64,000 bases of DNA from an uncultured Spirochaetota bacterium (GCA_963736785.1 CAVTQG010000053.1:64039-128038), one strand, 5' to 3'; counted from the first letter of the stretch, positions 2,926 through 63,463 are shown. Numbers and translations are program-made. The notes: generated from the letters alone by a model not told the origin.

Positions 2926-4998
2926 TCAGCTCAGGGCCTTCAAACAGTCCTCGATTATCGACAAGCCCTGGTTGATCTGGGCCTGGGTGATCACCAGGGG
3001 CGGGGCCAGGCGGATGGAGCACTCCCCGGCGCCCAGTAGAAGTAGCCCTTTCTTGAAGGCCTCTTCCAGCAAGCGATTGCGCTTGTCCTTGGCAGGAGTT
3101 TTTTTCGCGTCGGCCACCAGTTCGATGCCCACCATCAACCCCAGGCCGCGCACGTCCCCGATGAGGGGGTACCTCTGCTGCATCCCCTGCAGCTGGGCCT
3201 TGAGGTACTCGCCCTGGACGCGGGACTTCTCCACCAGCTTCTCCTCGGCGATCACTCGCAGCACTGCCTTGGCCGCCTCCAGGATGATCGGCCCGCCGTT
3301 GAGCGTGCCCTCGTGCGCCCCCTCCTCCCAATCCATGACCTCGGCGCGGGCCACCGCCGCGCCGGCGGGCAGCCCGTGGGCGAAGGCCTTGGAGATGGCC
3401 ATGATGTCCGGCGCTACCCCGGAGTGCTCGCAGGCCCACATCTTCCCCGTGCGCCCGAAGCCGCTCTGCACCTCGTCCACGATCAGGACGATCCCGTGCT
3501 GCCGGCAGATGGCCTGCAGGCGCGGCAGGAACTCCTTGGGCGGCACGATGTAGCCGCCGGCCCCCTGCACGGCCTCCACCAGCAGGAAGGCCACCTCGTC
3601 GGGCGGGGTGATCTTCTTCAGCGTGATGTCGCTCAGGTAGTTCAGGCAGTGCAGGTCGCAGGAGGGGTACTCCCGGTTGAACAGGCAGCGGTAGCAGTAG
3701 GGGTAGGGCACGAAGTGCCCGATCGGGTACATGGGGGCGAAGCCGCGCCGGGCCGAGACGCCCGTGGTGGTGAAGCTCACCGCGCCCATGGTCCGTCCGT
3801 GGAAGCCGTTGATGAAGCCGATCCCGTAGGGCCGTCGGGTGTGCCACTTGGCCATCTTGATGGCCGTGTCGATGGCCTCGCTGCCGGAGTTGGAATAAAA
3901 CACCCGCTTGGGGAAGTCCCCCGGGGTGGCGCGGAAGAGCATTTCCGCGTACTCGATTTGCGGCACGGTGTAGTAGTCCAGGCTGTTGAGGAACACCAGG
4001 CGGTCCAGCTGGGCCTTGATGGCCGCGATCACCTCCGGGTGGCGGTGACCCAGGGAGTTCACGGCGATCCCCGAGCCGAAGTCCAGGAACACGTTGCCGT
4101 CCGCGTCCTCCACGTACACCCCTTCGCCCTTCACGCCCACCAGCGGCGAGCTGCGGCTCAGGGAAGGGGAGAGCAGCTGGTTGTCCTTACGGATCCACTC
4201 CATGGCCTTGGGGCCGGGCGGGGTCACGACGATCTTCGGCGCGCTGTAGGCCATGCGGCATTGGGGCACGGCCGGCGCGGCTTTGTGCGAATGCGCGGGG
4301 TCCAGCTCCAGCTCGATGCGCTTGTTGATCCGGCCCTTGCTCTTGTAGCCGGCCACCCTCACGGCGCCCACCTCGCGCGTGTTGGCCACATGGGTGCCGC
4401 CGTCGGCCTGCAGGTCCAGGCCCTCGATCTCCACGGTGCGGACGATGGTGATGTCCACGGGCAGCAGGTTGATCTTGGTGCGGATCAGGTCGGGGATGCG
4501 GAAGGCTTCATCCCTGGCGAGGTGGCGCACGGTCACCGCGCGGGCGGCGGCCACTTCGGCGGCCAGGCGGGCCTCGATCTCGTGCACCAGGTCCCCGTGC
4601 AGTGTCTGGAACTCGAAGTCCATGCGCCCCTTCAGCGGCTCCATGTTGCCGCCGGTGACCTGGGCCTGGTAGTCGCGCCAGACCACCCCGCAGAGGATGT
4701 GGAAGGCGGTGTGGGTGCGCATCAGGGCGTAGCGCCGCTCCCAGTCCAGCACGCCGTGCACGGCGGTCCCCGGCGCGGGAGGGTCCCCCTCCAGGACGTG
4801 CCAAATCCATTCAGCCCTGCGCTGCACCTTGCGCACCGGGAGCCCCGCCAGCGACCCCAGGTCGCACGGCTGTCCGCCGCCGCCGGGGTAGAAGGCCGTG
4901 CGGTCCAGGGCCACGGCGCGCTCGGCCGCGTCCGTCCCGGTCACCACCGCGTCGAACTCGCGCAGGTAAGCGTCGGTCTGGGCCAACAACTCGGTCAT
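2926..4998 (-). CDS. Single-ORF fusion: AlaX-type alanyl-tRNA editing domain (aa 1-~235) plus class-III PLP aminotransferase (aa 249-690)
   Basis: Uninterrupted 690-aa ORF. The N-terminal part carries THTAFH...DGGTHV (tRNA-synthetase second additional domain / AlaX zinc motifs). From the internal ATG at 4254 it reads MAYSAPKIVVTPPGPKA...NSGSEAIDTAIK...DEVQSGFGRTGKMWA...ISKAFAHG (GabT/ArgD-like, PLP lysine). No stop in the junction and no SD before the internal ATG. Confidence 0.85.
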   Translation of the reverse strand: MTELLAQTDAYLREFDAVVTGTDAAERAVALDRTAFYPGGGGQPCDLGSLAGLPVRKVQRRAEWIWHVLEGDPPAPGTAVHGVLDWERRYALMRTHTAFHILCGVVWRDYQAQVTGGNMEPLKGRMDFEFQTLHGDLVHEIEARLAAEVAAARAVTVRHLARDEAFRIPDLIRTKINLLPVDITIVRTVEIEGLDLQADGGTHVANTREVGAVRVAGYKSKGRINKRIELELDPAHSHKAAPAVPQCRMAYSAPKIVVTPPGPKAMEWIRKDNQLLSPSLSRSSPLVGVKGEGVYVEDADGNVFLDFGSGIAVNSLGHRHPEVIAAIKAQLDRLVFLNSLDYYTVPQIEYAEMLFRATPGDFPKRVFYSNSGSEAIDTAIKMAKWHTRRPYGIGFINGFHGRTMGAVSFTTTGVSARRGFAPMYPIGHFVPYPYCYRCLFNREYPSCDLHCLNYLSDITLKKITPPDEVAFLLVEAVQGAGGYIVPPKEFLPRLQAICRQHGIVLIVDEVQSGFGRTGKMWACEHSGVAPDIMAISKAFAHGLPAGAAVARAEVMDWEEGAHEGTLNGGPIILEAAKAVLRVIAEEKLVEKSRVQGEYLKAQLQGMQQRYPLIGDVRGLGLMVGIELVADAKKTPAKDKRNRLLEEAFKKGLLLLGAGECSIRLAPPLVITQAQINQGLSIIEDCLKALS

Positions 4999-22235: not shown

Positions 22236-23693
22236 TTAGAGAACAGTAACTGGCGCGGGAGAATCAGAATCCCAGCGGAGTGTACCCTTTATTCGACAGT
22301 TTCTGCTTGGAATTATCTGATTCAGCTTCCAGCTGGGGTGGGTCATCCCGAAGCGTTTGATCTTGTAGTTGAGCACGCGGCTGGAAACCCCGAGCAGTTT
22401 CGCCGCCTCTTTCTGGACCCAGCCGGAGCGTTCCAGGGCCTGCTGAACGAAGCTCCGCTCCACCACTTCCAGGTTCACGCCTCCCGGCGGGAGCGTGAGC
22501 TGCCTGTCCCCGTCCGCGGTCGGCTTGCGGTCGAACGTCCGCCCCAGTCCCCCCAGGGTCACGTTTTCCCCTTCGCACAGCAGGACCGCCCTCTCCACGG
22601 TGTTTTCCAGCTCGCGGATGTTGCCCGGCCAGTGGTAGCTCAGCAGCGCCTCAAGCGCCGCGGAGTCCATCCCTTTGATTTTTTTGTTCAGGGCCACGGC
22701 GAACTTCTTCAGGAAAAACTGGATCAGCAGACGGAGATCGTCGCCGCGCTCGCGCAGGGGAGGCAGATGTATCGCCACCACGTTCAGGCGGTAATAGAGG
22801 TCTTCCCGGAACTTCCCCTGCTCGATCTGCTTCAACAGATCCTTGTTGGTGGCGGACAGGATCCGGACGTCGGTCTTCACGGTCTGGCTGCTGCCCAGCC
22901 GCTCGAACTCCCGCTCCTGCAGCACCCTGAGCACCTTGGCCTGGGTGTAGAGGCTCATGTCGGCGACTTCGTCCAGAAAAATCGTCCCGCCCGAGGCCTG
23001 CTCGAAGCGTCCGATCCGGAGCTTTTCCGCCCCGGTGAAGGCGCCCTTCTCGTAGCCGAACAGCTCGCTTTCCAGGAGCTGTTCCGGCAGCGCCGCGCAG
23101 TTCACCCGCACGAACGGGCCCTTGCTCCGGTCGCTGTTGTAGTGGATCGCGCCGGCGACCAGCTCCTTGCCGGTGCCGGTTTCGCCGGTGATGAGGACGC
23201 TCGAGTTGGTGTTGGCCACCAGGTTGACGATCCTGAAGGCCGCTTTGATCTCCGGGCACTCGCCGATGAAGTTGTACGGCTGGTAGACGTTGCGGAAGCG
23301 GTCGGTGACCGCCTCTTCCTTGCGCGGCTCCTGGTGTTTTTCAAGAGCCTTCTTGATCTGGAAGGCCAGTTCCGGCAGGCTGAAAGGCTTCTGGATGATC
23401 CCGAACGCCCCCTCTTTTACGGCGCGCACTCCTTCCTGCACCGTGTCGATTTCGGAGTTTACGATGACGAGGGTGCTGGGATTCTTATCCTTCACCGCCG
23501 CCACCAGGGCTCGAATGGTTCCCCCCGGAATGCTGACGTCGCTGATGATAATGTCGAATTCTTCCTTCCTGATCAGCTCGAGGGCGGCGGAATAGTCGGA
23601 GGCCTTTTTCGCCAGATTGCCGGTGCTGTGCAGATAGTTGCAGACGTCTTCGCACAGGCTCGTGTCTTTGTCGACTACCAGGAGTTTTCGCAT
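22236..23693 (-). CDS. Sigma-54-dependent response regulator (NtrC family: REC + AAA+ + Fis HTH)
   Basis: Start MRKLLVVDKD at 23693. Motifs VLITGETGTGKE, ESELFGYEKGAFTGA, HTH KEAAKLLGVSSRVLNYKIKRFG. The track ORF start 23873 is an extension. Confidence 0.9.
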   Translation of the reverse strand: MRKLLVVDKDTSLCEDVCNYLHSTGNLAKKASDYSAALELIRKEEFDIIISDVSIPGGTIRALVAAVKDKNPSTLVIVNSEIDTVQEGVRAVKEGAFGIIQKPFSLPELAFQIKKALEKHQEPRKEEAVTDRFRNVYQPYNFIGECPEIKAAFRIVNLVANTNSSVLITGETGTGKELVAGAIHYNSDRSKGPFVRVNCAALPEQLLESELFGYEKGAFTGAEKLRIGRFEQASGGTIFLDEVADMSLYTQAKVLRVLQEREFERLGSSQTVKTDVRILSATNKDLLKQIEQGKFREDLYYRLNVVAIHLPPLRERGDDLRLLIQFFLKKFAVALNKKIKGMDSAALEALLSYHWPGNIRELENTVERAVLLCEGENVTLGGLGRTFDRKPTADGDRQLTLPPGGVNLEVVERSFVQQALERSGWVQKEAAKLLGVSSRVLNYKIKRFGMTHPSWKLNQIIPSRNCRIKGTLRWDSDSPAPVTVL

Positions 23694-23772
23694 AGTCCGC
23701 AGCGCGATTTCCTGTACTTGCCCCGCTATTCCACGCGCGATTATACTAGAAATAGCCCCTTTTGTCGTTGCC

Positions 23773-24826
23773 CTGGAGGATATTACGGAGCTCTCGAAGG
23801 TCGAAAAACTCAAGAAACTCTCCTTTTTCGCCGGTCTTTCCGAGTACGACCTCCACCAGATCGACCAGATCACGGTGGAAAAGCACTATGCCGCGGGAGA
23901 GTCGATCGTCGAGGAGAACGCCACGGCGGAGCGGTTCTTCATCATCGCCAAGGGGAAGATCCAGATCGTCAAGCGCTTCGAGAACGGGGAGCAGCTCGTC
24001 CTGGGCGTGCACAGCGACGGGGAGTTCTTCGGCGAGATGGCGCTGCTGGATGAAGGTCCGCGCTCGGCGACCGTCCGGGCCGTGGATTCCACGACGGTCG
24101 TGGAGATCGCCCGGAAGGATTTCGAAACGCTCATCTACAAGTCGCCGGTCCTGGCCTACAGCATCATGCGGGAGCTCAGCTCGCGGCTGCGCGAGACGGC
24201 GGCCCTGCTGATTTCCCACCTGCAGCGCAGGAACCGCGAGCTCTCCCAGTCCTATCTCGACACCGTCAACATCGTCATGCAGGCCATCGAGGCGCGGGAC
24301 TCCTACACCCGTGGGCACACGGAACGGGTCACCGATCTGGCCAAGGCGATCGGCGAACAGCTGAAGCTCTCGGAAGAGCAGCTCTTCAACCTGGAAATCG
24401 GATCACTGCTCCACGACGTGGGCCAGATCAGCGTTCCCGCCGCCATATTGCAAAAGCCAGGTCCGCTGGAGCGAGGACGAATTCGCCCGGGTCAAAAAGC
24501 ACCCGGAGGAGGGGAAGAAGATCGTCGAGCCGATTCCCTACCTCGAGGAGGCGGTCTCCACGATCCTGTATCACCACGAGCGTTTCGACGGTTCCGGCTA
24601 CCCCGAAAAGCTCCAGGGCCAGCAGATCCCGCTGGCCGGGCGGATCATCGCAGTAGCGGACGTTTTCGATGCGCTGACCAACGATCGCCCCTATCGTGAC
24701 CGTTTGCCCGCGGAGCAGGCGATCCAGCTGATAATAGAAGGAAAAGGAAGCAAGTTCGATCCCGTAGTGGTCGATGTGTTCCTTAAGGTCGTAAAAACCT
24801 ACAAGCCGAGACCGGCGAGACAGTAG
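23773..24826 (+). pseudogene. cNMP-binding domain + HD-GYP phosphodiesterase, one frame break near 24468; start codon unresolved
   Basis: cNMP domain FFAGLSEYDLHQI...GEFFGEMALLD...RSATVRA. HD-GYP motifs TRGHTERV, LLHDVGQ, and after the shift SEDEFARVKKHPEEG...HHERFDGSGYP...ADVFDALTNDRPYR, ending at TAG 24824-24826. Confidence 0.8.
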
Positions 24827-24956: not shown

Positions 24957-24972
24957 TGGCATGAGGTTTGCA
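24957..24972 (+). promoter_or_regulatory. Sigma-54 (-24/-12) promoter TGGCATgaggtTTGCA
   Basis: Near-consensus match with correct spacing, 26 nt upstream of the PilZ ATG. AGGACGAGGG lies between them. Confidence 0.65.
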
Positions 24973-24997
24973 TGCTTGATGATAGAAGGACGAGGGT

Positions 24998-25303
24998 ATG
25001 GACGAAAGAGAAATGCAGCAGGAAAGAAGAGACCTTTCGCGGTTTGACTTGAGACTGCGTTCCATGCTCAAGAAGCTGCAGGACGGCGAGAGCCTGGAGC
25101 TCTTCACGCGCGATGTTTCCTCCAAGGGAGCATACTTCTACACGGGCAGCCCTCTTCCGATCGACACGGGCCTCGCCATGACCCTGTTTCTGCCCGTCGG
25201 GCAAACCACCAGCAAGATCAGCGTGGCCGGAAAAGTGGTTCGAACCGAAGACGACGGCATGGCGGTCCGGTTCGATCCCAGCTACACCCTCGTCTCCGCT
25301 TGA
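24998..25303 (+). CDS. PilZ-domain c-di-GMP receptor
   Basis: 101 aa with RRDLSR (RxxxR) and DVSSKG (DxSxxG). Confidence 0.8.
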   Translation: MDEREMQQERRDLSRFDLRLRSMLKKLQDGESLELFTRDVSSKGAYFYTGSPLPIDTGLAMTLFLPVGQTTSKISVAGKVVRTEDDGMAVRFDPSYTLVSA

Positions 25304-56212: not shown

Positions 56213-57565
56213 ATGGAAGCATTGCGGGCCGGGTACGTGAGTTTCGGCACCCAGTACTACAAGCCCGAAAACCTCAAGATGATCAGCGCCCGGGCGGAGA
56301 AGCAGCTGGAGGCGGCCGGGATCCGGCTGCTGCGCACCGACCCGGTCACCGGCGAGGGACCGGAGCCGGAGCGGGCGATCGCGGAGCTGAAGAAGGGGGA
56401 CTGGGACTTCCTGATCGCCAACATCGTGAACTGGATCGAGGTGCGCGGCGTGATGCGGGTGCTGATGGAGTTCCGCGACCGGCCCATCCTCCTGTACAGC
56501 ATGGGCGGCTTCACCGAGGGGGACACCCTGATCTGCCCGGCCGCGGGAGCGGGCGTGGCCGCCATCCGCTATCCCCTGGAGCGCTGGGGCTTCCGCTTCA
56601 AGCACCTGTTCAACGCCCCGGACACGCCCGTGGACGTGGAGGGGATCGTCAGGTTCGGGCGGGCCGCCCAGACCGCGCGCCGGCTGCGGCGGGCCCGGGT
56701 GGGCATGATCGGCTTCAACGACATGGGGCTGTACACCACGGATTTCTCGGCGGTGAAGCTGCGCGACAGGATCGGCCTGGAGGTGGAGAGCCTGGACATG
56801 CTGCAGCTCCTGCGCCGCATGGAGGCCCTGGACGCCGGCGAGGTCCGCGAGGAGATCGAGCGGGTCACCCGGGACTGGGAATACCCGCTGGGCAGGCCCA
56901 GGGAGGAGGTGCTGGAGCGGGCGTTCCGCCTGTACCTGGCCACCGTGCAGCTGTGCCGGGAGAAGAACTTCAGCGGCTTCTCCTACAAGTGCGTGGACGG
57001 GGTGGATGCGGAGCTGGGCCTGACCCACGCGGTGCCTTCCGCCCTGGTGGCCTCCGCGGGCATCCCCTACGTGGACGAGAACGACGTGGGCAACCTGGTG
57101 GCCGAGCTGATGCTCAAGTGGCTGACCGGCCGGGAGCCGATGTTCCTGGAGCACTACGACCACCACCCGGAGTGGATCCTGCTGGGCGAGGACGGCTACA
57201 TCCCCGACGCCTTCATCGACGGCAAACCGCAGATCAAGAGTGTTTCCACCGCGCTGCTGGGCGGCATCGCCCACTGCTCGCGCCTGAAGCTGGGGCGCAT
57301 GACGTTATGCTGCCTGGCCGAGGACGCCGAAGGCTACCGGATGCACATCGTGAGCGGGGAGGGGCGCAAGCCCCCGCAGTGGGTGGAGATGGGTGTGCCG
57401 CTGCCTTCCTGGCCCAGCGTGAAGTTCCACACCGACGTGCCGGTTCGCCGGATCCTGGACCACGTTCAGTCCCAGCACTTCGCCGCGGTGCCCGGCGACT
57501 GCGTGGAGGAGCTGAAGGACCTCTGCTTCCTGCTGGGCATCAAGGTCGTGGACGACGCCAGGTAG
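56213..57565 (+). CDS. L-fucose/L-arabinose isomerase-family protein (COG2407), intact paralog 2
   Basis: 450 aa behind a GAGGAGG SD. Collinear with the fragments at 38396..39762. Confidence 0.75.
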   Translation: MEALRAGYVSFGTQYYKPENLKMISARAEKQLEAAGIRLLRTDPVTGEGPEPERAIAELKKGDWDFLIANIVNWIEVRGVMRVLMEFRDRPILLYSMGGFTEGDTLICPAAGAGVAAIRYPLERWGFRFKHLFNAPDTPVDVEGIVRFGRAAQTARRLRRARVGMIGFNDMGLYTTDFSAVKLRDRIGLEVESLDMLQLLRRMEALDAGEVREEIERVTRDWEYPLGRPREEVLERAFRLYLATVQLCREKNFSGFSYKCVDGVDAELGLTHAVPSALVASAGIPYVDENDVGNLVAELMLKWLTGREPMFLEHYDHHPEWILLGEDGYIPDAFIDGKPQIKSVSTALLGGIAHCSRLKLGRMTLCCLAEDAEGYRMHIVSGEGRKPPQWVEMGVPLPSWPSVKFHTDVPVRRILDHVQSQHFAAVPGDCVEELKDLCFLLGIKVVDDAR

Positions 57566-58968
57566 TGCCGGCGGAGCCTGGCGGCCAGTGGCCGGGCCAT
57601 GAGGTGCCAGCCGGCCAGGGTCACCAGCGAGACCGGGCGCGGCAGCTCCGCGCGGCATCCGCCCGGCGCCGGCAGCAGGCCGAGGCGCTCCAGTCTCTGC
57701 CGCAGGTTGCGCCGCAGCGAAAAACTTCCGTAATACAGCCGCAGGAAACGGGTGAGGAAGCGTTCCGGTTCCAGGCGGGTGGACACGATGGCGTGCAGGA
57801 AATCGTAGTGCTCGTAGGGTGAGCGGATCCGGCCGCGTTGCTCTTCGAACAGGATCGTGCCGGGAAGCGGGGTCAGGACCACGAAGAAGGGGTGGCTCAG
57901 GTTGGTACGGGCCACGAAGTCCGCCAGCGCGTCGAAGTCCTCTTCCGTGAAGTCCGGGTCCACCAGCAGGTGGGCCAGCGGGTTGATGTCCAGGCGGTGC
58001 AGGATGCGGATGGCCTCCTCGTTGACCCGGGTGTCGGTGCCCTTGGCCAGCCGGGCGAGCTGGCTGTCCCGGGCCGCCTCCACCCCGATGGTCAGGTCGC
58101 GCAGGCCGGCCGCTCGCCAGCGCTCGAAGAGCGCAGGGTGCCGGACCACCGTGTCGCACCGGGCATAACCGGCGTAGCGCCTGCCGGCGTCCTCCCGGCG
58201 GATCAGGCTGCAGAGCTCCTCGGCGCGCGAGGTGTCGGAGAAGGTGTGGTCGTCGGCGAAGAACACCCGCACCGGACCCCGCGGCAGGGCAGCCAGCTCC
58301 GCGGCCACATCCGCGGCCGGCCGCACGAGCACCCGGCCTCCGGCCGCCTTCCAGCAGGCGCAGAAGGTGCAGCGGTGGGGGCAGCCGCGGGCGGTGTTCA
58401 CCAGGTAGGTGGGGCGGCCCTTCTCGTCGCGGTAGCGGCGCCGGTAGCGGGCGGCCAGCTCGCGGCGGGGCAGGGGGATGTCCCGCGCCTCCGCCGGGGC
58501 CAGCGCGGTGTCCGCGCTCACCGGCCGCCCCTGGCGCAGGACGCTGACTCCGGCCAGGCGGCTGCCGTCGCCTCCGCTTTCCAGCTCGCGGATGTACCCG
58601 GGGAAGCTCCTGTCCGCCCAGCCCCGGAAAACGGCATCCACGTCGGGAGAGTGGAAGTCCTCCGGGACCAGCGTGGGGTGGTGCCCGCCCACGATGCGTT
58701 TGGCGGAGGGCAGGGTCCGGCGGACGCGCCGCAGGAGGTCCTGGGCAGCCCGGACGTGGATCGTGTTGTTTACGCTGACTCCCGCCAGGTCCGGCCGGAA
58801 CTCCTGCAGGCAGTGCGGCAGCTCCTCCTCCGGCTCGAAACGCAGGTCGAGAATGCGGACCTCGTGCTCCGGCACCGTCGCGGCCAGGACCTCCAGGGCC
58901 AGAGGCTCCATGGCGTCAGGGGCGATCGCTTCGGGATTTTTCGGCGGCTGGATCAGCAGGATCTTCAT
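57466..58968 (-). CDS. B12-binding-domain radical SAM protein (class B), function unknown
   Basis: MKILLIQPP... Rossmann-like cobalamin domain, CPHRCTFC (CxxxCxxC) cluster motif, 500 aa. The last ~33 codons are antisense to the isomerase gene. Confidence 0.85.
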   Translation of the reverse strand: MKILLIQPPKNPEAIAPDAMEPLALEVLAATVPEHEVRILDLRFEPEEELPHCLQEFRPDLAGVSVNNTIHVRAAQDLLRRVRRTLPSAKRIVGGHHPTLVPEDFHSPDVDAVFRGWADRSFPGYIRELESGGDGSRLAGVSVLRQGRPVSADTALAPAEARDIPLPRRELAARYRRRYRDEKGRPTYLVNTARGCPHRCTFCACWKAAGGRVLVRPAADVAAELAALPRGPVRVFFADDHTFSDTSRAEELCSLIRREDAGRRYAGYARCDTVVRHPALFERWRAAGLRDLTIGVEAARDSQLARLAKGTDTRVNEEAIRILHRLDINPLAHLLVDPDFTEEDFDALADFVARTNLSHPFFVVLTPLPGTILFEEQRGRIRSPYEHYDFLHAIVSTRLEPERFLTRFLRLYYGSFSLRRNLRQRLERLGLLPAPGGCRAELPRPVSLVTLAGWHLMARPLAARLRRHYLASSTTLMPSRKQRSFSSSTQSPGTAAKCWD

Positions 58969-58979
58969 GGTCCCGGTAC

Positions 58980-58995
58980 TGCAAGCGCCGTGCCA
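58980..58995 (-). promoter_or_regulatory. Consensus sigma-54 promoter TGGCACggcgcTTGCA
   Basis: Minus strand reads ccgccTGGCACGGCGCTTGCAgtaccgggaccATG. Full match to TGGCACG-N4-TTGCW. Only 12 nt separate the TTGC element from the ATG, and there is no SD. Confidence 0.75.
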
Positions 58996-59013
58996 GGCGG
59001 GTGTGTTCCTCTT

Positions 59014-59043
59014 ATTGCTTGGCAGGGGACGAATTGCTTGCAG
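59014..59043. repeat. Direct repeat ATTGCTTGGCAG ... ATTGCTTGCAG upstream of the sigma-54 promoter (candidate activator sites)
   Basis: Two copies 19 nt apart, 20-50 bp upstream of the -24 element. Confidence 0.3.
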
Positions 59044-59111
59044 CCGGGCTTGTCGGCAGGCCCGCGGCCCTGCAACGGGGGTTGCGGGCTGGAGTCGAAG
59101 GTTGCCGGCAG

Positions 59112-60527
59112 CTACGTCCCGGACTTGAGCCGCTTGTTCAGGGCCTGGTGGGAGATCCCGAGTAGGCCGGCGGCGATGCTCTGATTCCCGCCGGACCGCT
59201 TGAGGGCCTCCGCGATCAGCAGCTCCCGGACCTGCCGCAGGGTGGGGAGGCGGGCCGGGAAGACCGCGCTTTCGGCGGGCGAGGCCGCCGGAGCCGGCAA
59301 GCCGGGCGATGCCCCGGGCCTGGCCCGGTCCATCAGCTCCTGGAACGGGGCCAGGAGAAGCTCTCCCGCCGGGCTCATGGCCAGGGAATTGATCACCGCC
59401 TGGCGCAGCTCGCGGATATTGCCCGGAAACTCGCAGGCCTGCAGTTGCCTCACCAGCTCCGCGGGCACGGGCGGAATTTCCTTGCCCAGCTTCTCGGCCG
59501 CGTCACGGAGCAGGTCGGCGAGCAGCAGGGGCAGGTCGTCCGCGCGCTCCCGCAGCGGCGGGACGTGCAGCCGGTGGGTCGAGATCCGGTAGTAGAGGTC
59601 GTGGCGGAACTTCCCCTCGGCCATCCGCGCCTCCAGGTCCCGGTTGGTGGTGGCCACAATCCGGGCGGTGCTGCGCTTCGGCAGGTCGGCGCCGAGGGGC
59701 AGGTACTCGCCGGAGTCCAGCAGGCGCAGCAGCTTGACCTGGGAGGTCGGGCTCAGGTCCCCGATCTCGTCCAGCAGGAGCGTCCCGCCGTCCGCCTGCT
59801 GGACCATGCCGCGCAGCGCCTCCAGGGCGCCGGTATAGGCGCCCTTGTAGTGCCCGAAAAGGGTGTTGGCGAACTGCTCGTCGTCCATGCCGGCGACGTT
59901 GGCGGGGACGAACAGCCCCGCCCGCCCGCTCGACCGGTGCACGGCCCGGGCGATGCGCTCCTTGCCCACGCCCGTTTCCCCGGTGATCAGCACCGGTTCG
60001 CCGGAGCCGGCGATGGCCTCGATGATCAGGAAGACGGCGTGCATGGTCCGGTTGTTCGTGGTGATGTCCGCGAAGGCCTGCGGGTTGGACAGGGTGGGGG
60101 AGAGCAGCTTGCCTTTCAACCGGCTGCAGGTTCGCTCCAGCTGCCGGGCGGACAGGGCCTGCTTCACCCCGCCGGCCAGCCGGCTCTCCTCCACCGGCTT
60201 GACCATGTAATCGAAGGCCCCGGCGCGCATGCAGTCCACGGCCGCCCGCACCTCGTCCCTGGCGGTGACCACGATCACGGGGACCTGGGGGAAGCCGGCG
60301 CGGAGGTCCGCCAGCAGCCGCTCTCCGGGGATGTGGGGCAGCCCCAGGTCCAGCAGCACCGCCTCCGGATGGCGCGCGCCCACCAGCTCCAGCGCCTGCC
60401 GCTCGTCCGCGCAGCCCAGGACGTTGCCCAGGCCGTTGGCCTTGAGCATGGCGGTCAGGCTGGTCAGCACTGTCGGCTCGTCGTCCACGATCAGGATCAG
60501 CTCCTCGGAAACGGGAAGGGCGCTCAC
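59112..60527 (-). CDS. Sigma-54-dependent response regulator (REC + AAA+ + Fis HTH)
   Basis: LILIVDDEP...LLDLGLP receiver, VLITGETGVGKE, GAYTGA loop, HTH QSIAAGLLGISHQALNKRLK. The GTG start is 1 nt after the kinase stop. Confidence 0.9.
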   Translation of the reverse strand: MSALPVSEELILIVDDEPTVLTSLTAMLKANGLGNVLGCADERQALELVGARHPEAVLLDLGLPHIPGERLLADLRAGFPQVPVIVVTARDEVRAAVDCMRAGAFDYMVKPVEESRLAGGVKQALSARQLERTCSRLKGKLLSPTLSNPQAFADITTNNRTMHAVFLIIEAIAGSGEPVLITGETGVGKERIARAVHRSSGRAGLFVPANVAGMDDEQFANTLFGHYKGAYTGALEALRGMVQQADGGTLLLDEIGDLSPTSQVKLLRLLDSGEYLPLGADLPKRSTARIVATTNRDLEARMAEGKFRHDLYYRISTHRLHVPPLRERADDLPLLLADLLRDAAEKLGKEIPPVPAELVRQLQACEFPGNIRELRQAVINSLAMSPAGELLLAPFQELMDRARPGASPGLPAPAASPAESAVFPARLPTLRQVRELLIAEALKRSGGNQSIAAGLLGISHQALNKRLKSGT

Positions 60528-60528
60528 G

Positions 60529-63463
60529 CTACACCTCCGCGGGCAGGCTGACCGTGACCCGGGTGCCCTTGCCCGGCTGGGATGAGAAATCCAGCGTTCC
60601 CCCGTGCTCGGTCACGATCGTCTTGACGATGAACAGGCCCAGGCCCGTGCCGCCGGCCGCGCGGCGGGTGGTGAAGAAGGGCTCCTGGAGCCGGTCCAGG
60701 TGCTCGGGGGGGATGCCACAGCCCTCGTCGCTGACCTCGAGGCGCGCCTGCCGGCGGTCCCGCGCGCCGGCGGTGCGCACGGCGATCGCGCGCCCGCGGT
60801 CCGGCAGCGCCTGGCAGGCGTTCAGGATCAGGTTGATGACCACCTGCTCCAGCCGCTGGGCGTTGCCGGTGACCGCCGGCAGGTCCGGCTCCAGCTCCAG
60901 GGTGAAGCGCTCCGTGGCTTGCCGGACTTGCCTTCCGGTCAGCTCCACGGCGGAACGCACCACCCCGTTGACCTCCAGGCGGCCCATGACGGGGAACGGG
61001 TCCTCCCTGGCGAACGAGCGCAGGTTCTGCACGATCCCTTCGATCCGTCGCGCGCAACTCTGCAGGTCCTCCAGCAGCCGGGGGAAGATTTCCCGGAACT
61101 CCCGGTCGTCCAGGCCGGCGATTAGAAAGCCGCCATTGGCCAGCTGGTACTGCTCGAGCACCGCGATCAGGTCCGGGCAGGCCCGGGCCAGGAGGGCGGC
61201 GTTGGCCACGATCGCCTGGTTGGGACTGACGATCTCGTGGGCCATGGCGGCGAGCAGCACGCCCAGGGTGGTGAGCTTGTCGGCCTGCATCAGGCGCTGC
61301 AGGGCCTGGCGGTCCTTCTCCTCGCTCTTCCTGCGCTCCGTGATGTCGCGCAGGATGGCCACCTCGGCCGGCTGCCCGTGCCACACGGTCTGCGAGAAAC
61401 CCAGCTCCACCGGCACGCCGGGGCCCGCTTTGGAGCACAGCAGGACCTCAGCCGTGGCTGCTTCCCGCGGAAAGGCGGCGGGGTCCACCAGCCGGGAGAG
61501 CTCGAGGGCCAGCAGCTCCGCCCTGCCGTAGCCGGTGAGCTCGGCGGCCCGCCGGTTGGCGTACACCGGGACCCCCTTCCGCAGTATGAGGATGCCGTCC
61601 CGGGCGTTCTCCGCCAGCATCCAGAAGCCCGCCTCGGCGCGCTGGATGGCCTGGAGCATGCGGTTGAAGGCGCGGGCCAGGAAGCCGATCTCGTCGTGGA
61701 ACTGCGGGGCCACGCTGGCCTGCAGGTCCCCCGCTTCGGCCCGGCGCATGCCCTGCTCCAGCGCCCGCAGCGGCCGGAGCAGGTTGGTGCGGAACAGACG
61801 CGGAAAGGCGAACAGGATGAACAGGGTCGAGGCGGCGAGGATCACGGCCAGCAGGGACATGCGGTCGTGGAGGTAGCGCTGGTAGCCGGCCTCGTAGGAC
61901 TCGAAGACGACTGCCGGTCCGTCGCAGGAACAGGGGAGGCCGGCGGTGAAGCTCACTTCCTGCAGGGGCGCGTCCGGCAGGCCGGGATGGATTCCGGTCA
62001 GCCGCGGTCCGTAGGCGACCGCTTTTCCCTTGGAGCCGGGGTGGCGGCCCGTGGTCGTGGCCGTAGTGAAGTTGTACATCTGCACGGCCTGGTAGCGGCC
62101 TTGCGGGTCCAGCTCGGCAAAGGACATGCTGAAGGAACCGTCGCCGCGCAGCACAAGCTGCACCGTGTTGGAGTTCCGGTAGCCCAGTTCGGGCAGGCGG
62201 TACCAGGTCACCATCAGGGTGGCAGGCTCGGTTTTCACGAAGATCCCCCCGCCGGCCGCGGGATCCAGGTTCAGCAGGAGCGGGGCAATGGCCGGGTTCG
62301 GCCGGTAGCCGCCCCAGCCGTCCTCCTCAATCCTGTCCCCGAGATAGAGCATGGGGCAGTGCAGCACGTGAACCCGGGAATGCAGGCGTCCGAAAAAAGG
62401 AAAGGAGAACTCCAGGGGGATGCGCCCTCCGCTGGGGATGTCCAGCCGCTCGCCCAACTCCCTGTCGAAGCGCAGCGCCTGGCTCGCGATATCGTACCCG
62501 CCGGAGCCGTGTCCGGAGCCCCGGGGCGTGAAGACCAGCGTCCTCCCCAGGGGAAGCCGGCCCTGGGCGGAGTAGTCGGTTTCGGTGGCCTGGCCGGTGA
62601 GCAGCGCCACCAGTCCCAGGACGCTCAGCACCGGGAGCAGGGCCAGCCCCACCAGCTTCACCTGGATGCTGGAGGGTTCGGAGGTGTGGTTGAGGTAGGT
62701 GACGACGAAGCCGAAGTCGAACAATAAAAAAACCAGCCAGATCAGGTAGGTGGCCACCGGCAGGGGCAGGAAGCCGTAGGTCAGGAACACGTAGCCGGCG
62801 ACCGCCGCCACCGGCAGCAGCAGGAGCACGGCCAGGGAGCGAGCCGCGCGGGAGTCCTTGCCGTGCGGGTGGAGCAAGGCGGCCCACCATGGGCGCGACT
62901 TGCCGCCGGACAGGAGCACCGCCCGCCGGAACAGCAGGGTCACGATCAGGATCACCTTTCCGCCGGCGCTGGCGTACAGCAGCAGGTAGTAGGTCATCGT
63001 GAAGCGGAAGATGCTCCGCAGGCGCTCGAGGAACACGAAGTTGTAGACCGTCAGCGCCAGCATCGCCAGGTCCACGAGGAGGACGGCGGCCAGCACCCTC
63101 CGAAATTCGCGCTTCTGCGCCGCGGGCAGCCGGGGGAAGGTATAGGTGAACGCGAGCAGGGACAGGAGAGTGAGCGATGGGCCGATGTCCTGTAAGCAGC
63201 GGCACGAGGAGATTTTTCAGGTTGCGGGGTTGCCAGTACCAGGTCCCCGCGAACTCCAGCAGCGAGGGGAGCTGGAAGATCGCGGTGCCGCAGAAGGTCA
63301 GCCCCAGGCACAGGGTAGCCCGAGACCTGCTGGGGCGGCTGAGCAGGTAGACCGCGATGCAGAGGGACAAAACCACCGTCGCCAGACGGATGATGGAGCA
63401 GGAGTCCAGGTTGAGCCAGTAAGGCAGGAGCGCGATAAGAGCCTCCTCACCAGTATAAGGCAT
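60529..63463 (-). pseudogene. Sensor histidine kinase with a multi-TM N-terminal region, ~240-aa extracytoplasmic domain, HAMP, PAS, HisKA and HATPase; one frame break near 63195
   Basis: The N-terminus MPYTGEEALIALLPYWLNLD... (ORF 62327..63463) joins ORF 60529..63096 after the shift. HAMP DEIGFLARAFNRML, H-box MAHEIVSPNQAI, G-box GTGLGLFIVKTIV. Confidence 0.85.

Follow-up and report, generated by a model that had tools for sequence, protein, structure and literature searches.

Near one end of the window, the 64-kb stretch of DNA analysed here, three genes run in the same direction on the minus strand: a sensor kinase, an NtrC-family response regulator and a class-B radical SAM enzyme. The regulator gene (59112–60527) starts 1 nt past the kinase stop codon (TAG, 60531–60529) and is preceded by GGAGG, and a gap of 143 nt (58969–59111) separates it from the radical SAM gene (57466–58968). 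As originally predicted, no precursor-peptide, lipid or cofactor genes accompany the cassette. The gene that follows the radical SAM gene is convergent (FucI-like, 56213–57565, plus strand; its Fucose_iso_C match is sub-threshold, 28.3 bits against 29.3), so the radical SAM transcript would be monocistronic; the last 100 nt of the gene overlap the 3′ end of this neighbor.

The kinase, described in the original prediction as one ORF of about 975 aa, is not intact: the frame from ATG 63463 breaks off near 63193, and another frame contains the long ORF (60529–63096, 855 aa). The first 90 codons (63194–63463) encode the first TM helices and agree with the N-terminal parts of the kinases at two orthologous loci, L001 and L155. 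With these kinases as queries, tblastn changes frame at ~63193, where we place one extra base (CTGCTT[A]CAGGACATC, 63184–63199), and deletion of one base at this position yields a 977-aa ORF that is collinear with both orthologous kinases (called at 981 and 946 aa). The frameshift may have arisen by mutation or in the assembly, and a further frameshift is present in the window, in an unrelated HD-GYP gene (~24455–24465). Since the kinase is frameshifted in the window, the cassette may be inactive in the source genome.

The main kinase frame (60529–63193; the listed ORF starts at GTG 63096) encodes, as judged by Pfam and hydropathy, TM helices, an extracytoplasmic domain, a further TM helix, HAMP, PAS (PAS_8/PAS_9), an H-box and HATPase_c (96 bits). 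HisKA remains sub-threshold (18 bits against a cut-off of 26.9), with the H-box MAHEIVSPN visible, and a hydropathy scan of the repaired kinase places about seven TM helices ahead of residue 293 and another at 533–558. The 240-aa extracytoplasmic domain (61864–62583) has no Pfam match at E ≤ 0.01, and the 440-aa sensor region has none at E ≤ 1. A phmmer search with the domain against 1.84 billion representatives returned 589 matches at 1e-3, 139 at 1e-10 and 13 at 1e-30; three distant matches (P0284, P0288 and P0306, 1e-17 to 1e-21) bear Pfam NIDO (nidogen-like, PF06119), and through these transitive links only the domain appears to be a divergent NIDO-like one. Direct membership of PF06119 was rejected, no Pfam match exceeding the gathering score, and the AF2 model of the domain is unusable (pLDDT 43).

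The response regulator (471 aa, GTG start) combines Response_reg (88 bits), Sigma54_activat (173 bits), AAA_lid_14 and HTH_8 (Fis-type HTH) Pfam domains with Walker A (GETGVGK), Walker B (LLLDEI) and, at residue 229, GAYTGA in the position of the GAFTGA loop. It thereby has the domains and motifs of an NtrC-class bacterial enhancer-binding protein, as the original prediction held; GAYTGA is a natural and functional GAFTGA variant in HrpS (PMC3105312). The best NCBIfam matches are AtoC and NtrC, and the protein reaches no NCBIfam equivalog cut-off (304 bits for AtoC, which requires 714). Use of sigma-54 in the source genome is indicated by a second sigma-54 activator (22236–23873) and a second −24/−12 site (24957–24972) in the window; no rpoN gene is found within the 64 kb.

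The class-B radical SAM enzyme

The 500-aa enzyme has the class-B organization, an N-terminal Pfam B12-binding domain (PF02310, residues 20–123, 58 bits) followed by a Radical_SAM core (PF04055, residues 190–352, 63 bits). The CX3CX2C motif of the [4Fe-4S] cluster is formed by C196, C200 and C203 (GCPHRCTFCACW, 58360–58383), and its columns are invariant in 38 aligned sequences; binding of both cobalamin and the cluster is predicted. The AF2 model (pLDDT 89.9, pTM 0.88) returns AprD4, TsrM, MgmA, OxsB, CysS and TokK as top Foldseek matches, with TM-scores of 0.62–0.67. Family profiles and structure prediction, which had been proposed as a check, place the fold confidently in class B and the sequence in no named subfamily. 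The best profile match, the hopanoid C-3 methylase HpnR (TIGR04367), reaches 170.7 bits against a cut-off of 650, and the anaerobic cyclase BchE (TIGR02026) 130.2 against 481; both assignments were rejected. The same two families are the top-scoring named ones for all 38 aligned members, none better than ~1e-76. Residues ~463–500 (57466–57582) form a non-conserved C-terminal tail that is variable in the 38-sequence alignment and disordered, with pLDDT below 50 at 476–500.

Most likely, the enzyme acts by methylation or another modification on an unactivated carbon, in a molecule that is hydrophobic or belongs to the envelope; the substrate class is speculative. This proposal is based on the 170-bit similarity to HpnR, a lipid methylase, and on what paralogous regulators would control: the predicted targets of related kinase/activator pairs are a CsgG-like gene and a small, lipoprotein-like one, which together with the HpnR match suggests a link to the envelope.

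Conserved elements of the gap and distribution of the cassette

The gap upstream of the radical SAM gene contains a full-consensus sigma-54 type −24/−12 promoter, TGGCACGGCGCTTGCA (58995–58980), which matches TGGCAC-N5-TTGC exactly. The window has no other exact match to TGGCAC-N5-TTGCW; by chance 0.06 are expected per window, and 6 of 100 shuffles contained one. The GG and GC dinucleotides of the promoter are one helical turn apart and the site is intergenic, ahead of a gene, as in sigma-54 promoters. A simple scan of the gap found no sigma-70-like promoter, and no terminator-like site was found on the minus strand between the activator and radical SAM genes.

We aligned five orthologous gaps, those of the window and of four further loci, a small and mutually related set from one narrow clade, in which the gaps are ~65% identical outside the invariant elements. 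All five keep, in order: GCAAC and GCAA-N6-TTGC just past the activator stop codon, AATT with an A-rich element, TGGYAY-N5-TTGC, and ATG. The promoter counterparts are TGGCATGCATCTTGCA (L155), TGGCACGGGTCTTGCT (L151/L152), TGGTACGGATCTTGCT (L086) and TGGCACGCTATTTGCT (L001). The first distal site, TGCCGGCAACC (59100–59110), is a candidate activator half-site with an invariant GCAAC; the second (59072–59085) is the palindrome GCAAC-CCCC-GTTGC, a candidate upstream activating sequence in which GCAA...TTGC is invariant. The palindrome is not repeated elsewhere in the window, where it is the only GCAAC-N5-TTGC site; as far as 64 kb can show, the pair may serve the radical SAM gene alone, as was originally inferred. 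The original prediction had pointed instead to proximal direct repeats, and ATTGCTTG does occur twice, 19 nt apart (59014–59021 and 59033–59040, within CTGCAAGCAAT and CTGCCAAGCAAT of the minus strand, 59014–59043). The repeats are only partly conserved, however: the AATT core of the first is invariant, and the second retains only scattered A positions of the A-rich element. They may be extra activator sites or a site for a bending protein. Among the candidate activator sites, conservation is best at the distal elements GCAAC and GCAAC-N4-GTTGC (59072–59106). A related kinase/activator pair at L157, with a ~49% identical sensor region and the same HTH helix, also has the GCAAC element after the activator gene and the palindrome as GCAAC-TTCC-GTTGC, ahead of a different target.

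A neighborhood survey bore out the linkage of the three genes, which recur between different flanks at four more distinct loci, but confined it to a narrow clade. L001 encodes a kinase (981 aa), an activator (465 aa) and the radical SAM enzyme; L155 encodes all three as well (946, 465 and 499 aa); and L151/L152 and L086 have activator and radical SAM genes on short contigs. This recurrence, with neighbors that differ as far as the short contigs reach, agrees with the earlier view that the genes act as a unit. By tblastn across 154 loci, only orthologues at 70–80% identity have the activator beside the radical SAM gene, and none of about 140 radical SAM homologues at ≤51% identity is linked to a kinase and activator. 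Clustering of neighbors across the homologue loci gave no conserved neighbor or partner for the distant homologues. A 66% identical orthologue, L154, has neither an activator nor a sigma-54 site in the available 1 kb upstream, so the enzyme can do without such control, and in L153 the promoter and ATG are missing.

Promoter-to-start geometry and its interpretation

The promoter abuts the start codon: only 12 nt lie from the C of TTGC (58981) to the A of the ATG (58968), and this spacer (with the ATG, 58966–58980) has no Shine-Dalgarno sequence; other genes in the window have strong GGAGG sites. The spacing is 12, 12, 13, 12 and 14 nt in the five loci; the spacer sequence is not conserved, and the start codon is ATG in all five. 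From the −12 geometry, transcription is predicted to start at ~58971–58968; in C. jejuni, mapped starts lie 8–13 nt past the sigma-54 motif (PMC3847290). The gene would thus have the AUG start and lack of Shine-Dalgarno typical of leaderless mRNAs. Across the fetched DNA, about eight more sites are plausible for sigma-54 (two in L020, one each in L104, L117, L143, L156 and L157, and the window site at 24957); they lie at least 26 nt from the ATG, and a GGAGG-type Shine-Dalgarno can be seen at most of them. The geometry is therefore specific to the radical SAM gene. A transcription start 1–3 nt ahead of the ATG could make leaderless translation inefficient. Full-text literature searches found no described case of a sigma-54 leaderless mRNA, and one may still exist.

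Based on these observations, we propose, with a probability of roughly 60%, that the locus is a clade-specific regulatory cassette of uncultured, probably Spirochaetia, bacteria that controls a sigma-54-switched, leaderless class-B radical SAM gene. The membrane sensor kinase, with its seven or so TM helices, NIDO-like domain, further TM helix, HAMP, PAS and kinase core, would detect an envelope or outside signal, which is speculative, and phosphorylate the NtrC-family regulator. The regulator would then assemble on GCAAC and GCAAC-N4-GTTGC, a few bases past its own stop codon and ~90–135 bp upstream of the start, and its GAYTGA loop would open the sigma-54 holoenzyme at TGGCAC-N5-TTGC. Transcription would begin at the radical SAM ATG or within ~3 nt of it, and for this reason the monocistronic mRNA would lack a Shine-Dalgarno and be translated as a leaderless message (leader of ≤5 nt), giving a product of an unnamed family beside HpnR and BchE. 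The original observations largely hold, apart from the kinase as one ORF; of the original interpretation, the unit, the promoter, the lack of a named enzyme subfamily and the lack of accompanying precursor-peptide, lipid or cofactor genes stand. The architecture, however, is a known one, the linkage is confined to a narrow clade, and the repeats are only partly conserved.

Among the alternatives, the one we take most seriously, while considering it clearly less probable than the proposed cassette, is that the locus is a decaying remnant in this genome, with a real frameshift and a radical SAM gene that is silent or uninducible here, even if the cassette works in relatives. The 1-nt indel at ~63193 splits a kinase that stays in one frame at this point in L001 and L155, and the deletion of promoter and ATG in L153 provides a precedent for decay. 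Nevertheless, the second frameshift, in the HD-GYP gene, points to indel errors in the assembly, both kinase halves keep coding-like sequence, and the promoter, candidate activator sites and radical SAM ORF are all intact. It is rather unlikely that the mRNA has a leader after all, because transcription reads through from the operon of kinase and activator or comes from an upstream promoter that escaped recognition, or that the sigma-54 start lies inside the ATG and translation begins at Met20. Such readings draw on the lack of a terminator-like site, on the conservation of Met20 in the close clade (F, L, G or Y in outgroups) and on the variation of mapped sigma-54 starts by several nucleotides (PMC3847290). 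Yet the ATG would have no Shine-Dalgarno even under read-through, Met20 has none either, and L154, which lacks a sigma-54 site, has Met20 as well. The N-terminus is moreover conserved as protein: MKILLIxPP is kept family-wide, codons 2–19 differ by synonymous changes, and residues 2–7 are modelled as strand β1 of the B12 domain (average pLDDT 96 for the first ten residues). That the 12–14 nt spacing is kept and the spacer sequence is not also argues for the leaderless arrangement.

A third reading, which we regard as improbable, has the enzyme serving neighboring sugar or aminosugar genes, as an aminosugar C-methylase or AprD4-like dehydratase, with the two-component system regulating one step of the pathway. 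DegT, epimerase, Aminotran_3 and GHMP-kinase genes adjoin the cassette in L001 and L155, FGGY kinase and FucI-like genes lie downstream in both the window and L155, and AprD4 is the top Foldseek match. Its lead over TsrM, MgmA and OxsB is negligible, however, at 16% identity; the position of the cassette relative to the sugar genes differs between L001 and L155, and the flanks differ in L153, in L154 and, upstream, in the window (DeoR regulator). The genomes are also related, so that simple synteny may account for common neighbors; the radical SAM gene is the only one that the promoter serves, and distant homologues show no association with sugar genes. Finally, that the −24/−12 match is a chance sequence devoid of promoter function is very hard to credit: shuffled windows do occasionally contain an exact match, but this one lies in the cassette's only non-coding gap, directly downstream of a sigma-54 activator gene, and four more distinct loci preserve its GG and GC dinucleotides as well as its spacing and position.

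Comparison with known systems

The three-gene architecture was originally said to be unrecognised, but a two-component sigma-54 activator beside a single target is a textbook arrangement, and 23 of 30 sigma-54 units in C. difficile adjoin their activator gene (PMC7438776). Like the cassette, NtrBC, AtoSC-atoDAEB, ZraSR-zraP and DctBD-dctA pair a sensor kinase with a REC-AAA+-HTH_8 activator, have activator sites ~100 bp from the −24/−12 promoter, and have a target that adjoins the activator gene. The cassette differs from them in a sensor with about seven TM helices and a NIDO-like domain without a Pfam match, and in a target that is a single orphan radical SAM gene whose promoter abuts the start codon. 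The regulatory architecture is accordingly ordinary; what is new lies in the sensor, in the gene that is targeted and in the leaderless geometry predicted for a sigma-54 promoter.

With HpnR (TIGR04367) and BchE (TIGR02026) the enzyme shares the N-terminal B12-binding domain and radical SAM core, but no hopanoid or bacteriochlorophyll genes are among the genes annotated here. The solved class-B enzymes AprD4 (6fd2), TsrM (6wtf), MgmA (9ccb), OxsB (5ul4), CysS (9n1b) and TokK (7kdx) have in common with it a Rossmann-like cobalamin domain and a partial TIM barrel (TM 0.62–0.67), and sequence profiles match as well (OxsB, 1e-24). Identity to them is only 14–19%, the C-terminal region of the enzyme differs and ends in a long helix (448–472), and none of the six points to a substrate.

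Leaderless mRNAs of Deinococcus-Thermus, mycobacteria and Leptospira resemble the predicted message in having a promoter element immediately upstream of the ATG and no Shine-Dalgarno. In the spirochaete Leptospira such messages are common, about 440 having leaders shorter than 10 nt (PMC5243855). These cases rely on sigma-70-type −10 boxes (PMC12340547), whereas the promoter here would be an enhancer-dependent sigma-54 promoter.

A sensor kinase, activator and radical SAM cassette

The activator is encoded by a 471-aa ORF with a GTG start (60527 to 59112, minus strand), which is preceded by GGAGG and opens 1 nt past the kinase stop. The originally predicted set of three co-oriented genes was borne out, all of them lying on the minus strand, as was the 1-nt gap between kinase and activator. 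Pfam assigns REC, sigma-54 AAA+, AAA-lid and HTH_8 domains to the activator, which carries Walker A (GETGVGK), Walker B (LLLDEI) and GAYTGA-loop motifs, GAYTGA being a natural functional variant in HrpS (PMC3105312). The regulatory logic is that of a standard two-component sigma-54 unit. Elsewhere, the window encodes a second sigma-54 response-regulator activator with the canonical GAFTGA (22236–23873, minus strand), and an acetylornithine-aminotransferase-family ORF (2926–4998, minus strand) whose domain spans residues 252–688 of 690 aa; its 250-aa N-terminal extension is probably an over-long call in GC-rich DNA. No tRNA or Rfam family was found in the window.

The kinase gene is split over two frames: the frame of the ATG at 63463 is lost near 63193, and a long ORF spans 60529–63096 in the other frame. 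Each half aligns with the kinases of two orthologous loci (981 and 946 aa as called), the frame switching at ~63193, and removal of one base there (an indel within 63184–63199) gives a 977-aa ORF like those of the orthologues. The predicted ~975-aa sensor kinase therefore holds in its domains (HAMP, PAS and HATPase_c by Pfam, HisKA only weakly, plus an H-box that can be made out in the sequence) and in its repaired length, but not as a single intact ORF; overall, the original prediction described something real, with a broken kinase.

In the repaired kinase, ~7 predicted TM helices lead to an outer domain of 240 aa; one further TM helix separates this from HAMP, PAS and the kinase core. Pfam returned no match for the outer (periplasmic) domain at E ≤ 0.01, nor for the sensor region at E ≤ 1, and an AF2 model of the sensor region from 8 sequences reached a pLDDT of 43. 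An exhaustive phmmer search with the outer domain recovered 589 representatives at 1e-3, 139 at 1e-10 and 13 at 1e-30, many of which hold the domain at an equal position (~residues 280–450) in kinases, hybrid kinases and cyclases. Since Pfam assigns to NIDO those distant matches in which the domain is repeated, the outer domain is, as judged by sequence, a divergent NIDO-like module. Proteins P0145 and P0292 exemplify the joining of the 7TM and NIDO-like module to adenylate/guanylate cyclase outputs and hybrid kinases, and fusion to several output types suggests a reusable sensor without its own Pfam model. The kinase also represents a sensor type shared by all three protein classes.

We gathered ~155 loci from exact-protein look-ups and collection scans, the metagenome scan contributing just two close loci and exact-protein look-ups the others. 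The radical SAM relatives form a tight group at 65–86% identity and then fall to ≤48%; the close clade is absent from species-representative genomes, where the best relative is 45% identical. A gene-neighbourhood survey by tblastn (154 loci) supported the linkage in part. The cassette recurs in orthologues of 70–80% identity, the only ones in which the activator (60–68% identical) immediately precedes the radical SAM gene (L001 (= L002 = L087), L151/L152, L086 and L153), but the kinase/activator pair is beside the radical SAM gene in 0 of ~140 homologues at ≤51% identity. All three genes are in the called-gene table of L155, a locus fetched later, and the kinase is also present where the contig is long enough (L001, L155). 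No activator was found within the 1 kb available upstream in L154 (66% identity). The flanks differ. Downstream, L155 and the window both have a FucI-like gene and an FGGY kinase, L001 has Aminotran_3 and L153 has defence-like genes; upstream, there is a sugar-amine cluster in L001 and a DeoR regulator in the window. Differing flanks and linkage limited to close orthologues indicate a three-gene unit that is conserved, and apparently moves as a block, only within a narrow clade.

Promoter elements and spacing to the radical SAM start codon

The gap between the activator and radical SAM genes (58969–59111, 143 nt) contains a sigma-54 type -24/-12 promoter, TGGCACGGCGCTTGCA (58995–58980, minus strand), an exact TGGCAC-N5-TTGCW, and two direct repeats, ATTGCTTG, at 59014–59021 and 59033–59040, 19 nt apart; gap length, consensus motif and repeats all agree with the original prediction. 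Five orthologous gaps align with a mean column identity of 65%. Invariant in all five are a GCAAC right after the activator stop (59101–59105), a second GCAA...TTGC palindrome 20 nt on (59072–59085), which in the window reads GCAAC-CCCC-GTTGC, the promoter TGG.A and TTGC, and the ATG; within the two repeats, an AATT core and a few of the A positions are likewise invariant. The promoters of the orthologues read TGGCATGCATCTTGCA (L155), TGGCACGGGTCTTGCT (L151/L152), TGGTACGGATCTTGCT (L086) and TGGCACGCTATTTGCT (L001). When the window was scanned for GCAAC-N5-TTGC, the sole match was 59072–59085.

The paralogous kinase/activator pair of locus L157 has a sensor region ~49% identical to that of the window and an HTH helix, GNQS.AAG.LGISHQAL.KRLK, common to both activators. 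A GGCAACC-N13-GCGCAAC-N4-GTTGC element follows its activator gene, as in the window, and a TGGCACGGTGTTTGCA promoter precedes a CsgG-like gene. Retention of both the helix and the element argues well for the distal GCAAC sites as the sequence that the activator recognises. The proximal repeats (59014–59043), which contain GCAA and are less conserved, may be extra activator sites or a bending site; no WATCAA-N4-TTR match to an IHF site was evident in them by eye. Read as its reverse complement, the -12 region GCTTGCAG (58979–58986) matches exactly a stretch of the first proximal repeat, CTGCAAGC (59036–59043), 49 nt away, possibly by chance, since TTGC/GCAA occurs in both. At L153 (1290–1400), ~100 nt holding the palindrome, sigma-54 promoter and ATG are absent, and site 1 runs almost directly into codon 2 (CTA AAG ATC), reflecting either a decayed copy or an assembly artefact.

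The predicted distance of 12 nt from the last base of TTGC to the first of the ATG, with no Shine-Dalgarno in it, was confirmed in the window, and genes neighbouring the cassette have strong GGAGG sites. The distance is 12 nt in L155 and L086, 13 nt in L151/L152 and 14 nt in L001, so that a spacing of 12–14 nt is kept over five loci though the spacer sequence is unconserved. With the C of TTGC at -12, +1 falls at 58969 and the A of ATG at +2; mapped sigma-54 starts in C. jejuni lie 8–13 nt past the tTGCTt motif (PMC3847290), a range corresponding to 58971–58966 in the window. From this geometry we predict a leader of 0–3 nt, within the definition of leaderless as a ≤5-nt leader (quoted in PMC12754779). 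The MKILLIxPP start is conserved family-wide, codons 2–19 carry synonymous changes, and in the model residues 2–7 form strand beta-1 of the B12 domain (mean pLDDT of 96 over the first ten residues); the ATG is therefore the right start codon. Met20 was rejected as the true start; no Shine-Dalgarno precedes it, and it also occurs in L154, where the sigma-54 site is absent.

The radical SAM enzyme

Some of the most difficult reactions in biology fall to class-B radical SAM enzymes, and substrates are known for a minority of their families. The 500-aa protein (58968 to 57466, minus strand) has Pfam B12-binding (residues 20–123) and Radical_SAM core (190–352) domains, and its cluster motif GCPHRCTFCACW (C196, C200, C203) does not vary among 38 relatives. 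The nearest NCBIfam families are HpnR (170.7 bits, cut-off 650) and BchE (130 bits, cut-off 481); all 38 aligned relatives are likewise nearest to these two, no member going beyond about 1e-76. Scores under the curated cut-offs rule out true HpnR or BchE identity. The AF2 model is confident (pLDDT 89.9, pTM 0.88) and matches the solved class-B enzymes AprD4, TsrM, MgmA, OxsB, CysS and TokK with TM 0.62–0.67 at 14–19% identity; PDB sequence matches are equally remote. The HMM and structural placement thus led to no characterised subfamily, and together the scores and modelled fold argue for a genuine class-B member outside any named family.

The C-terminal ~38 residues are unconserved and residues 476–500 disordered. 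The gene shares its last 100 nt (57466–57565) with the 3' end of a convergent FucI-like gene (56213–57565). Its orthologues show similar overlaps with the convergent gene beside them, of 26 nt in L155/L151 and 86 nt in L001, and in every case the unconserved tail is the part involved.

Alternatives, proposed mechanism and known systems

The cassette may have decayed in this genome, with the split kinase a real pseudogene. However, an unrelated cNMP-binding/HD-GYP-type gene (23638–24826, plus strand) also looks frameshifted at ~24455–24465, with its conserved HD-GYP continuation in another frame, and two frameshifts within 64 kb suggest assembly indel errors, which makes an assembly error plausible for the kinase too. 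The -24/-12 match could instead be a chance motif, but TGGCAC-N5-TTGCW has one exact match in the 64 kb versus 0.06 expected. If the promoter is real, the transcript might still not be leaderless; a simple scan of the gap found no sigma-70-like promoter. Across the fetched DNA, some eight further strict sigma-54 motifs are plausible (L020 (twice), L104, L117, L143, L156, L157 and window 24957), a set that takes in both paralogous kinase/activator systems; they lie ≥26 nt before an ATG, most with a visible GGAGG-type site. This comparison, the kept spacing and the start-codon support make the geometry more than a single-sequence curiosity.

In the region 24957–25303 (plus strand), the second, near-consensus -24/-12 site of the window, TGGCATGAGGTTTGCA (24957–24972), precedes by 26 nt an ORF of 101 aa that resembles PilZ by eye, and an AAGGA Shine-Dalgarno stands between the two; this gene, in contrast to the radical SAM gene, would have a short leader of the normal kind. 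Related NIDO-like kinase and sigma-54 activator pairs with -24/-12 promoters and adjacent targets occur at L157 (9973–12384) and L156 (8001–12481), on contigs with many split genes. Their targets, a CsgG-like gene and a 95-aa lipoprotein-like gene, have normal Shine-Dalgarno leaders.

As to substrate, a role in the neighbouring sugar/aminosugar genes has to be weighed. L001 and L155 (1–5400 in each) both carry, beside the cassette, a cluster of DegT aminotransferase, epimerase, Aminotran_3 and GHMP/galactokinase genes, arranged differently in the two loci; this may be plain synteny or a functional link. Members of the enzyme family occur widely among uncultured bacteria and in some archaea, most of them solitary in variable contexts, and neighbour clustering of ~150 homologues, and of the 37–52% identity group separately, found no conserved partner gene hinting at a substrate. 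An envelope or lipid substrate is weakly favoured, because the related pairs drive CsgG-like and small lipoprotein-like genes and the nearest named enzyme, HpnR, is a lipid methylase.

We propose that a signal acting at the envelope would be answered by the kinase, which would phosphorylate the activator; bound at the GCAAC sites, the activator would remodel sigma-54 holoenzyme at -24/-12 and so yield a monocistronic, leaderless radical SAM mRNA. The full reading, in which the sigma-54 promoter evolved to fire onto the start codon, coupling a tight off/on switch under a previously undescribed 7TM/NIDO-like sensor to leaderless translation of an inducible, new-family, envelope-lipid-remodelling cobalamin radical SAM enzyme, is a tentative one, to which we give about one chance in four. 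The evidence base is five distinct loci from uncultured organisms. What appears new is the combination: a 7TM sensor with a NIDO-like domain, a promoter set on the start codon in a conserved geometry, and an orphan class-B radical SAM enzyme as the predicted sole target. A dedicated, conserved sensor and switch would offer a way into the substrate of a class-B radical SAM family.

A limited full-text literature search, which found TSS atlases, returned no description of a sigma-54 leaderless example; if confirmed, the 12–14 nt spacing would mean that sigma-54 transcription can feed leaderless translation, a combination not found in the literature searched. In the spirochaete Leptospira, leaderless transcripts are frequent (PMC5243855), and the geometry in the window also predicts one, but from a sigma-54 promoter. 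The enzyme, for its part, falls far below both curated cut-offs of its nearest named families, and shares with the solved class-B enzymes a common fold but little sequence identity.
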